A stretch of 13,718 nucleotides of DNA from the UHGV virus genome UHGV-0343652. One strand, written 5' to 3'. How positions within the stretch are numbered: the first letter of the stretch is position 1; every line of letters begins with the position of its first letter. Positions 3,001-6,000 of this stretch are shown piece by piece. This stretch comes from a virus. The position numbers were made by a program.

Positions 3001-6000
3001 AAATCGGGAAAATCTGGCCGCAAGCGCGGTCGTCCTGAAATTAGTTATTTGCTGAATGAGCTACAGCTTGACTATCTGTTACGCGTTATCCGTGGGCGTG
3101 ACGCAGAACGTATCAACCAGTTCAAGCTGGATGTTACGAAGGCATTCGCGAAGCATCGCGCCGCTGAACCAGTCCGTCGCGAATATCTGCCAGGCTATCA
3201 CGAAAGCCGTGACGGGCTTAAAGCACTGGGCGCAGAACGTCACCATTACATCAACCTTGCCCGCACTGAAAATCGCTTCGCTGGGCTGGCTGTAGGCGAG
3301 CGTCAGAGCGCGGGAGAGCAACAGTTAGGCTTACTGATAGTCATGCAGAAAATCGAGCAGGCAGCATTTAACGAGGCGATACAGAACGGCATGACACCGA
3401 CCGAAGCGGTGCGGGAAGTTGCTCGCCGCATGGAGACGTTCGCCAGCCTGATGACGTCAGCGCCGTCTCTGGGGGTGAATCATGCGTAATTATGATTTCG
3501 CCGCAATTATTCCGGTATCACCTGGCATTATTGGCAGATATGAAACGGGCGTTGTCAGCGCACGCGCACTGCATAAAGCGCTCGGTGTAGGCCGTGATTT
3601 CACCACCTGGATCAAAGGGCGTATTGAGGAGTACGGATTTAAAAAAGGTGTGGATTTTGAGGTTGTAGAAAATTTGTACTTTGATTCCCCGAAACGGGGG
3701 AGCCAAAGTGTAAATATTGAACAGTTTGATTCTGGCTGGCACGTCGCCTGGGAGAACGTGAACATGCCTGACATCCGCAACGCTGCCGCCCTGTACATCG
3801 ATACTGCGGATAAGTTCGCACAGGTGAGCATCAACCATGCTGATTACATGCGCCATATCGTGAGCCATTTCGCCGCTGAGCGCATGAAACACGTTAAGCA
3901 ATACTTGGGGGAGGTTTTATCAAATTATCGCGCTGGTGGCCCTGTACGGCGCGAATATCCGCATGATGCAGGAATGGCAGGCAAAACAAAGGCGACCACG
4001 AAAGGGTCGCCAGTGGAGATAAAGGAAATCAAGCGCATCACCAACTATGCCATGAGTGTAGCTGGTGGACAATGCTATCAGCCAGGCGGTCGGTTTTTAG
4101 TGGCTTTTAACCGCCGTGGGTATTTCTCGACAAAAGCCTCAAGGGCAAATCGTGTTGGCCTGGTGAGTGGCAGTGGATTAAGTAACAACCTCCTTTGCCG
4201 TTGTGCTTTTTCGCGCTGTCGCTCAAGTATGGATAATGCGATTTCCTGTAGTTCTTCATTTGTCATTGTCTGTACCCGTAAAGCGGTGCGCTGTAGTACC
4301 TCATATCACAGCGCAGGTATTTTTTATGGTTGTAATTTGCGTGATGATTCAGGTTGCTTTGCGACACACTGCATAAACATAAATAACGTGATGTTATTAT
4401 GTGCTTTCAAAGAAAACGCAGGTATTTTTCGCACAAACTTTTCTCGCAACACATCCGACCACTTAAGCAAAAAAGCGGCATATACTGAGGTTATCCCTTA
4501 TAAAACGGGGATCGGGCGTAGGAACCCGTTTAACTGTAAGGCGATAAATGACGCCAGAAGCGTCTTTTTTTCTGCCAGCGCTTTACGCCATATCAATGGC
4601 GTTGTGTATTGTGCGTACTCGTGCACCATCCAGTCATTTCACGAGTTGCATTTTGCACAGCGCCACCAGCAAACAATGGTGATGCTGGCGGGGCTACCGA
4701 AAGGTAGGCCGGAGTCCTTACAGTCCGGTATTCCTACCCCCGCCAGTGTCACCGCCCATTGTGAGCGTAGGAACTCCTGCGGTGACGTTATTCATCACTG
4801 TAAGGAGGCTGCCAACATGGCTACTACCCCTACCCTCGTACATTCTCAGACTGCCTTTATCTGGCGCTTTATCATCTTTGGCGCGTCAGAATCCCAAATC
4901 ATCCACGTAACCGCCTGGACGGAACGCGAAGCGCGTAACCGTTGCCCGTCAGGTTGCGTTGCTGTATTCGCCGCCCGTATCCGTCAGGAGGCATCACATG
5001 GATAAAAACATGTTGATCGCCTCTTCTTTCGGGCTGTATGATGCCGGAGTCGCCCACATGGCGACCGGGTTTAGCAGCCTGAATCAGATAGCGGACAGCC
5101 GCTTACATTCCGATATGCGGTTTTTTTGTGTCCGTAAGCCTACCCATACCCGCATTATGGCGGGGCGTAACGGGGGAGCCTTTGCGCTCGCTGGTTCCTA
5201 TCTGGCCAGTCTGCTAACCCCGTTACGTCTCGCCACCATGTTTAGCAGCGTAGTAGCGAGACTCCTTAATCAACAGATAGGAGCCTTTCACATGGCTGTA
5301 TCCGCACGCCCTTACTTTGTCTGGCGCTTTATGCAGTGCCTGACAGGCAGCATTGCAATATTCACCGTTACCGCTGCAACTGAGCGCGAAGCACGCGCCC
5401 GGCTGCCGCACGCACATCTGATTTTTGTCGCCCGAATCCGTCAGGAGGTGACTCATGCTTAAAACCTTCCGCGTCTTTTCCCGTGCTGTTAACAAGCGTG
5501 GCTATACCGTTGGCATCACGCAGAACGTGAAGGCCGAAAACGTCCAGGCCGCAATCAGCACAGTAATTAACAAATCAGCTAAAGCCGGTTTATCCGGCGT
5601 AATTATCCACGCAGTGACATGTATTCAGGATGAGGAGTAATTCATGTGTGATTTTTCCGATATGACTGTTGATGAAGCAGCAAAAAGCGCAATGCAGGCA
5701 GAACTTATTTGTTCTCTGATGATGGGTAACACAGGTGAAATGACTGAGGGTGAGATTGAGTCATTGCTCGCCCTGATTAAGCAGCTTACAGGTAAGGCTG
5801 GTAGCTGGCTGATTGCGGCATCGGGTGATGATGCAATATGCGTCAATGACTGAATCCTTTGTTGTTCTGAATATCATGAAATTAAGGGGGTGCAGTAATG
5901 CAGGAAATAACACTGGCAGAAGCCTCGCTACAGGCGCAGCAGGTAGAAGTAATCAGCCGCATGATTGAGCGCATGATTGAACGTAACCACGAAGAAATTG

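Follow-up and report, generated by a model that had tools for sequence, protein, structure and literature searches.

What keeps a reading frame of 1,524 nt free of stop codons when much of the DNA that it crosses looks non-coding? The question is raised by a 13,718-nt stretch of UHGV virus genome UHGV-0343652, which was analyzed over its whole length (hereafter the window) and matches a chromosomal island of Escherichia coli STEC2018-553 at 99.9% identity (locus L001; handles of this kind denote the loci with which the window was compared). The window belongs to the phage-inducible islands of E. coli, more precisely to their AlpA/primase/PerC type, and carries a P4-like RNA immunity module. 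The long frame noticed in a sequence-only reading of this DNA is real: on the plus strand it is open from 3479, begins with the ATG at 3482-3484, ends with the TAA at 5003-5005, and comprises 507 codons (507 aa) plus the stop. That reading had left undecided whether it is a translated fusion protein, the trace of a decayed gene, open by chance, or under some other constraint. The 507-codon frame is a composite of independent elements and not one folded protein; judged by its homology, codon phase and layout, it is the E. coli island version, in stretched form, of the P4 eta gene with nested kil. By analogy with P4, such an eta/kil-type frame is probably kept stop-free so that ribosomes loaded upstream carry transcription past the RNA immunity switch.

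The relationship with P4 lies in the 3′ part of the frame, where homology to P4 eta, in matching phase, extends over the last ~175 codons. Residues 341-500 of the open reading frame (ORF) product align with the P4 'ash'/'cI 137-aa' frame (tblastn, E = 3e-8, 34.5% over 160 aa). The Pfam family Phage_ASH (PF10554) matches aa 334-455 with 69.5 bits (cut-off 26; profile positions 1-105 of 107), and P4 Eta itself (199 aa, an ORF reconstructed from X51522) with 82.4 bits (E = 3.8e-23; positions 1-107 of 107). The codon phase relative to the C4 antisense RNA is identical in P4 and in both modules of the window, with the ATGG of the C4 motif at codon position 1. Those parts of PMC10111431 that recount Forti et al. 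(1999, J Bacteriol 181:5225) describe a constitutive P4 promoter inside eta, whose transcript is terminated through interactions of the CI and seqA RNAs, and Kil as a truncated form of Eta; in the same account full-length Eta is made only from the upstream late promoter, coupled to the alpA homologue, and Eta translation prevents termination. Every sequence-level feature of this design can be recognized in the window, with the exception of a promoter consensus.

The frame starts 5′ of the putative internal promoter and runs in turn through the leader and its terminator, the C4 gene, the targets that lie over the icd ribosome-binding site, and the Icd/Kil-like end (Table 1). Both C4 RNAs of the window are matched over their full length (model positions 1-87 of 87; gathering score 45). 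The leader carries the target sites GTAGGAA (4518-4524) and ACTGTAAGG (4533-4541); GTAGGAA and ACTGTAAGG(A) are each present both before and after C4 no. 1, and two single-stranded C4 segments are complementary to the leader and downstream sites. The downstream ACTGTAAGGA site overlaps the Shine-Dalgarno sequence (SD) of icd no. 1 (AAGGAGG, 4802-4808), a gene that has its own ATG at 4817 in frame with the long ORF. This is the small 3′ paralog with its own SD and ATG that had been singled out from the sequence, and its product is Icd-like, with 48% identity to that of the next Icd-like gene (5292-5462) and 32% to P4 Kil (alignment A1). The Cys-rich middle (6.5% Cys over aa 200-445), the intrinsic terminator (4550-4571) and the AT-rich stretch (41% GC) of the sequence-only reading are likewise all present; the C4 RNA, the isrK-like leader, the minus-strand gene and the P4 precedent had escaped it. 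A -10-like TATACT (4482-4487) lies 5 nt 5′ of the leader and would be the internal promoter, comparable to P4 PLE. The 8-nt overlap ATGnnTRA recurs at four gene junctions, at 3482 (ATGCGTAA), 3764 (ATGCCTGA), 4998 (ATGGATAA) and 5455 (ATGCTTAA); an AGGAGG SD lies in the last codons of the upstream gene at 4998 and 5455, and the SD is GGAG at 3764 and a G-rich run at 3482. The overlaps at 3482 and 3764 have the sequence form of P4-type translational coupling, and translation may be coupled there. Module boundaries between strains often coincide with these junctions, and among other C4 loci a P4-type ATGA overlap was found in 13/59 and some start/stop proximity in 25/59. What can be read from the DNA itself, then, is the set of parts, their order and complementarity, the start/stop overlaps, and a deficit of stops that comes without amino-acid constraint.

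This deficit was analyzed in 14 E. coli variants, which were obtained from DNA-level searches and chosen regardless of ORF status. In all 14, the ORF frame contains no stop over corridors of 647-1217 nt that hold one, two or three minus-strand genes, and 12-25 stops were found in each other plus-strand frame. The anchor-to-anchor spacer is 595, 961, 1159 or 1165 nt long and always in phase, so the architectures differ by 366, 564 and 570 nt, i.e., by multiples of three; L136 and L138 carry in addition a 69-nt in-frame deletion. Among ten sequences, the two alternative plus-strand frames of 3764-4060 show 10 and 7 polymorphic stop sites, and the ORF frame shows 0. Variable sites by codon position (15/11/12 and 30/28/28) show no third-position excess over 3740-4500. 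An alignment of relatives, as had been proposed, thus finds that the frame stays open but that a coding substitution pattern is missing. The cross-species set comprised 120 loci that were anchored only on a DNA pattern for the C4 RNA; 74 loci from other species were non-redundant and had enough flank. Several C4 types escape this pattern, for example module 1 of L003, L004 and L007 and the only module of L002 and L006, so that the set is a subsample of the C4 loci. In 59% of the 74 loci the eta phase is open for at least 200 nt upstream and at least 300 nt downstream of C4, the other phases in 1% and 4%. The cross-species ORFs in this phase cluster at 546-700 nt, like P4 eta, and the 1,524 nt of the window exceeds them all. 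An Icd alignment search of genome contigs for related loci gave no match.

The openness of the frame could also be a passive by-product of overlapping constraints, those of the minus-strand gene, the RNA genes and the operator/promoter, with the stretch left untranslated. The 62-aa gene antisense to the frame can be taken as real from the conservation of its family: the E. coli proteins are mostly 62-63 aa long (range 56-78), share 53-98% identity and have conserved ends. The third-position excess over this gene is 10/9/22, and since the wobble positions of both strands coincide over 4078-4266, codon position cannot separate the strands; it is the synonymous/non-synonymous split (13/17 vs 10/23), together with the conserved family ends, that favours the minus strand. 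The protein has no match in Pfam, PHROGs or NCBIfam. The plus frame is open in 38% of synonymous resamplings of the antisense-gene segment, and it is also open across the gene in the non-Ash loci L008 and L009, which carry the block 4074-4474 without an Ash module; furthermore, the sequences of two conserved RNAs, C4 and the leader, are passed on as a block, and blocks of the promoter region are strongly conserved. We nevertheless regard this explanation as unlikely. Dinucleotide shuffles gave P = 0.012 and P = 0.019 for the stretches outside the minus-strand gene (3772-4077 and 4267-4492) and P = 0.011 from leader to icd, the phase is kept between modules, and in L008/L009 the promoter block, which there lacks the Ash module, has gained 1- and 2-nt indels, and plus-strand open frames end there at the equivalents of ~4340-4373. 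The minus-strand genes, which belong to 4-5 families and include a YlcI/YnfO family member (72 bits), lie in 10/10 cases in one phase, wobble on wobble with the plus frame, which is the only phase where synonymous changes can remove plus-strand stops (these stops are not equal to TTA/CTA/TCA codons of the minus-strand gene, as the registers are offset). Translation of the homologous P4 frame is, moreover, reported in the part of PMC10111431 that cites Forti 1999.

Another explanation is that antA decayed by deletion and that the non-coding DNA downstream lacks stops by chance. The deletion is real. The antA remnant is 96% identical to aa 24-104 of the intact 282-aa AntA of L004, in an alignment that covers only aa 6-86, and the Pfam AntA (PF08346) match at aa 25-66 reaches profile positions 1-39 of 68, the complete domain not being present. 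The AntA-domain protein of ~190 codons that had been described does not hold up, since AntA homology ends at aa 86 (nt 3739); the protein-like look beyond this point is due to the relic of a Rha-like gene, for which the alignment with the L007 ORF covers 139 aa at 51% identity. The loss of antA is a 505-bp microhomology deletion between two CTGGCTGG repeats; it shifts antA by +1 into the downstream frame and has fused the first 86 AntA codons onto it. The ATG at 3764, overlapping the antA stop TGA (3769-3771), is the start used by relatives with an intact upstream gene, and cluster members of the resulting 413-aa form are present on >290 contigs. Chance is also favoured by the middle, which is without codon-position bias (in the Rha relic, 3846-3960, amino-acid constraint is gone, with variable columns of 30/28/28 by codon position), by a selection effect, in that the finding was picked for looking unusual, and by the 94-97% identity of the close relatives, through which openness is partly inherited. 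Against it, ~10 in-frame stops are expected over 3772-4492 and 0/20,000 shuffles were stop-free (P < 5e-5), with 7-16 stops in each of the remaining five frames; openness has been held across the four spacer architectures and the 69-nt deletion, all of them multiples of three, all 17 polymorphic stops lie in the two alternative plus-strand frames, and the same phase is open across species. A chance of roughly 1e-5 for a stop-free run of 245 codons had been given earlier, and the arithmetic is correct ((61/64)^245 = 7.8e-6). A fortuitous frame is therefore improbable. It is very improbable that the frame encodes a genuine multidomain protein (AntA-N, linker, Ash, Icd) that is functional over its whole sequence: gene callers and NCBI do name the 413- to 570-aa ORFs as proteins, a Pfam Ash family exists, lambdoid phages carry Ash+Rha proteins and P4 Eta is toxic like Kil, but there is no third-position excess over 3740-4500, the 28 homologues of the middle segment found in a database search are all from E. 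coli and this segment has no Pfam or PHROG match, the AntA domain retains 39 of its 68 profile positions, the stretch is taken up by independent elements of either strand, and the composition (11% Ser alongside 6.5% Cys) is that expected for translation of antisense or non-coding DNA. Among the options of the sequence-only reading, decay is thus borne out for antA, a fortuitous frame disagrees with the shuffles, the relatives and the cross-species phase, a conventional fusion is not supported, and another constraint, in the form of a P4 eta/kil counterpart, fits best.

On the reading of an eta/kil-type frame held open for ribosomes, the internal promoter would, in the resting state, make the leader and the C4 RNA; C4 would pair with the leader targets and over the icd SD, and transcripts would therefore end early, with icd and the replication genes off. 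Once the upstream alpA-rha operon is on, the message would arrive with ribosomes aboard, every junction being an ATGnnTRA overlap, and the ribosomes would pass the terminator and target sites because no stop intervenes. RNA polymerase would therefore not terminate, and the transcript would be insensitive to immunity. Read-through by ribosomes would thus place selection on the absence of stops, not on the amino acids of the middle ~350 codons, and the 507-aa polypeptide would be a by-product, with the exception of its Icd end. A broader claim is possible, and we put it forward tentatively: selection may keep a stop-free corridor of 400 to 670 codons, without amino-acid constraint and antisense to one to three small genes and a promoter, the sole role of which would be the ribosome escort of RNA polymerase through Rho-sensitive and RNA-controlled termination sites. 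If this is true, cargo genes would settle only in the opposite orientation, in the wobble-on-wobble phase that absorbs the no-stop rule, which raises a concrete rule for the insertion of antisense cargo genes into a translated region.

Several observations weigh against the reading of a frame held open for ribosomes. Translation of the frame and anti-termination are argued from P4 by analogy, and the message under translation would be cut if C4 were released from it by RNase P-type processing. A sigma-70 consensus scan found no site in 4267-4492, and a -35 element is not recognizable. Over the antisense gene, the resamplings mentioned above leave the frame open in 38% of cases, and 3846-3960 derives from a coding frame, a cheaper cause of openness. 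The 14 E. coli variants share much sequence and recombine, and are therefore not independent trials. Stops or frameshifts in orthologues had been named as the mark of non-coding DNA. The 14 corridors are free of stops in the ORF frame, and three kinds of relative depart from the rule: in L136 an extra T in the terminator T-run splits the frame, in the L002/L006 type the frame runs 51 nt into icd before it stops and does so in another phase, and 30 contigs carry a form of 85 aa (P0017) that is frameshifted.

Table 1. Features of the window and of related loci (positions are those of the window unless a locus is given)
Feature	Position	Strand	Basis or remark
AlpA-like helix-turn-helix regulator gene, first of the rightward operon	2487..2702	+	PGAP coding sequence (CDS) in L001 (8188-8403)
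rha, intact, 239 aa	2770..3489	+	stop TAA 3487-3489 overlaps long-ORF ATG as ATGCGTAA
507-codon stop-free frame	3482..5005	+	exact protein on 79 public contigs
antA 5′ remnant, aa 1-86	3482..3739	+	Pfam AntA, L004 alignment; PGAP pseudogene fragment
Deletion junction with a single remaining 8-bp repeat, CTGGCTGG	3732..3739		505 bp lost vs L004 (3238..3743)
SD GGAG (3751-3754) and ATG 3764, start of the 413-aa form	3751..3771	+	sequence; L133 CDS starts at equivalent ATG
Middle of Rha-like gene, relic in native frame	3846..3960	+	window Rha aa 94-139 vs L007 ORF aa 87-132
Intrinsic terminator of minus-strand gene: T-run after a 7-bp stem that has 6 GC pairs	3981..4011	-	terminator scan; also placed at 4011-3991
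62-aa gene antisense to the long frame	4078..4266	-	family conservation; PGAP-annotated in L006, L009
AT-rich divergent promoter region, 41% GC	4267..4492		conserved blocks also in L008/L009
isrK/seqA-like leader RNA	4493..4571	+	Rfam isrK 50.0 bits, equal to the gathering score; match 4493-4570
Leader intrinsic terminator	4550-4564, T-run to 4571	+	terminator scan
C4/CI antisense RNA no. 1, inside the ORF	4672..4759	+	Rfam RF01695, 70.3 bits
Downstream C4 target sites	GTAGGAA 4767-4773; ACTGTAAGGA 4797-4806	+	complementarity
Icd/Kil-like gene no. 1, 62 aa, in frame at the ORF 3′ end	4817..5005	+	NCBIfam NF033153, 53.9 bits; PGAP CDS
Second unit of same design, 154-codon ORF	4998..5462	+	ATG overlaps first ORF's stop (ATGGATAA)
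Module 2, promoter-like site	5013-5042	+	
Module 2, isrK-like leader	5049-5127	+	
C4 RNA no. 2	5153-5240	+	Rfam, 72.9 bits
C4 no. 2 target sites	TTAGCAG 5071 and 5242; CAGATAG 5085 and 5274	+	complementarity
icd no. 2	5292-5462	+	
Small minus-strand genes in relatives	L007 2769-3080, 3144-3323	-	
Small minus-strand genes in relatives	L138 2793-2969, 3030-3209, 3408-3596	-	
Small minus-strand genes in relatives	L132 3109-3288; L139 2769-3005, 3063-3242	-	

The way in which public annotation handles the locus varies. It had been expected that gene callers would report one 507-aa protein, and the exact protein is indeed found on public contigs, with related versions of 413-570 aa that carry the names 'Icd-like' or 'ash family'; however, the Prokaryotic Genome Annotation Pipeline (PGAP) splits the frame on the near-identical L001 genome into an antA fragment (3482-3739), an 'ash family' pseudogene (3974-4786) and the 62-aa Icd-like CDS (4817-5005). 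The PGAP 'ash family' pseudogene fragments of L002 (5301-5384) and L006 (3359-3442) coincide almost exactly with C4 RNA genes (Rfam, L002 5297-5384 and L006 3355-3442), and the protein-family match was therefore triggered by a translated RNA gene. The segment 3740-4080 had also been considered as a conserved protein domain, and this candidate was rejected on the small number and narrow range of its homologues.

The target sequences differ between the tandem modules (4493-5005 and 5013-5462), with GTAGGAA/ACTGTAAGG in the first and TTAGCAG/CAGATAGG in the second, which suggests two immunity specificities in series. Among the relatives, one module is present in L002 and L006, two in L003, L004 and L007, and other first modules occur. 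In L132 and L139 no C4/isrK match was obtained at E < 1e-4 and a frame of 465 to 489 codons with an Icd-like C-terminus is kept, so that the RNA module seems to have been deleted and the frame preserved. The small minus-strand genes inside the plus frame number one to three per strain, all in the same codon phase. Among them are the 62-aa family, which has an N-terminal MTNEELQ and a C-terminal KYPRRLKATKNRPPG, the relatives of this family with 78 and 103 aa, and YlcI/YnfO-like proteins. L136 and L138 deviate from the window in both hairpin arms of the minus-strand gene's terminator. In the O104:H4 locus L009, where the block 4074-4474 lies in a non-Ash context, the enterohaemorrhagic E. coli small RNA Esr41 is found ~2 kb upstream, at 489-562 (Rfam, 103.4 bits).

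Upstream of the frame, the Pfam Phage_AlpA/HTH_17 match spans 2391-2702. A common 5′ leader with the first ~17 codons (MKRPNMPVQGQGFVQPE) heads rha in the window (2735-2820), antA in L004 (2899-2984) and L006, and a Rha-like fragment in L007 (2219-2396); this shared head looks like the result of domain or module swapping among Bro-type genes. The island genes comprise an integrase, the AlpA-like regulator, rha, the antA remnant, the Icd-like genes, a primase (6277-8100), SSB, ProQ/FinO, PerC and a Q-like antiterminator, a set that is that of E. coli phage-inducible chromosomal islands (PMC11773190). The island of L001 (5892-19045) lies between yicC and dinD and also carries ProQ/FinO-family, PerC-family and Q-antiterminator-family genes; a tRNA-Gly gene adjoins the relatives L002, L004, L007 and L137-L139.

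These results bear on annotation in the first place. Hundreds of E. coli genomes contain 'Icd-like' or 'ash family' proteins of 400 to 570 aa that largely represent the translation of a promoter, of two regulatory RNAs and of DNA antisense to other genes. Such calls are not to be taken for folded multidomain proteins, and the RNAs and minus-strand genes beneath them are at risk of being masked. The property under selection appears to be the absence of a stop codon rather than the protein sequence, a clean natural case, and the P4 idea that translation protects the transcript therefore becomes testable in clinically relevant islands of Shiga toxin-producing E. coli.

The design is known from P4, from Phage_ASH and from the Bro genes of phage-inducible chromosomal islands (PICIs); in the literature searched we found no description of the stretched corridor with its antisense genes, of its phase rule, or of tandem modules of different specificity. 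The Bro zone of E. coli PICIs (PMC10111431; EcCIMP1, PMC11773190) resembles the window in its integrase, AlpA, antirepressor, Ash family protein, primase and PerC genes, and the presence of CI and seqA homologues inside PICI Bro genes, as well as domain swapping among them, has already been noted (PMC10111431). In the 383-aa 'Rha protein' of the lambdoid PhiR63_1, isrK (67.9 bits) and C4 (83.6 bits) lie within the Ash region at aa 117-213, and the regulated Rha domain follows in the same frame, so that the nested product is Rha and not Icd as here. We know of no antisense cargo genes inside the lambdoid and Gifsy-1 frames. Together with the Gifsy-1 isrK-orf45-anrP locus (PMC4825925), the lambdoid 'Rha protein' genes whose N-terminal part is an Ash region are among the nearest known counterparts of the window.

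The immI locus of P1 and P7 (c4 RNA, icd, ant) has a C4 RNA of the same Rfam family and an Icd-like product, and its target pairs flank the C4 RNA, the second covering the icd ribosome-binding site, as in the window; in the P1-like phage D6 (C4 at L131 1614-1701) a single tblastn alignment extends from before c4 to within 54 nt of the icd stop. In P1, however, the antirepressor lies 3′ of icd and is translationally coupled, whereas the window has its antA remnant upstream, and what comes after icd no. 1 is a second eta-like ORF with its immunity module, then small ORFs and the primase. With P4 the window shares a frame that stays in the same phase through the seqA/isrK-like leader, the terminator, the CI/C4 RNA and the downstream target, that holds a small killer or division-inhibitor gene with its own SD and ATG, and that starts 5′ of the internal promoter, putative in the window, with its start codon lying across the stop of the gene before it; the AlpA-like gene of the window is the counterpart of P4 orf88. 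Unlike P4, where eta has 197-199 codons and directly follows the alpA homologue, the window places the Bro-type genes rha and antA between alpA and the frame, has the module in tandem duplicate, and extends the frame to 413 codons from the ATG at 3764 and to 507 after the antA fusion; the frame runs, in addition, through the relic of a gene, through an antisense gene and that gene's terminator, and through a divergent promoter region.

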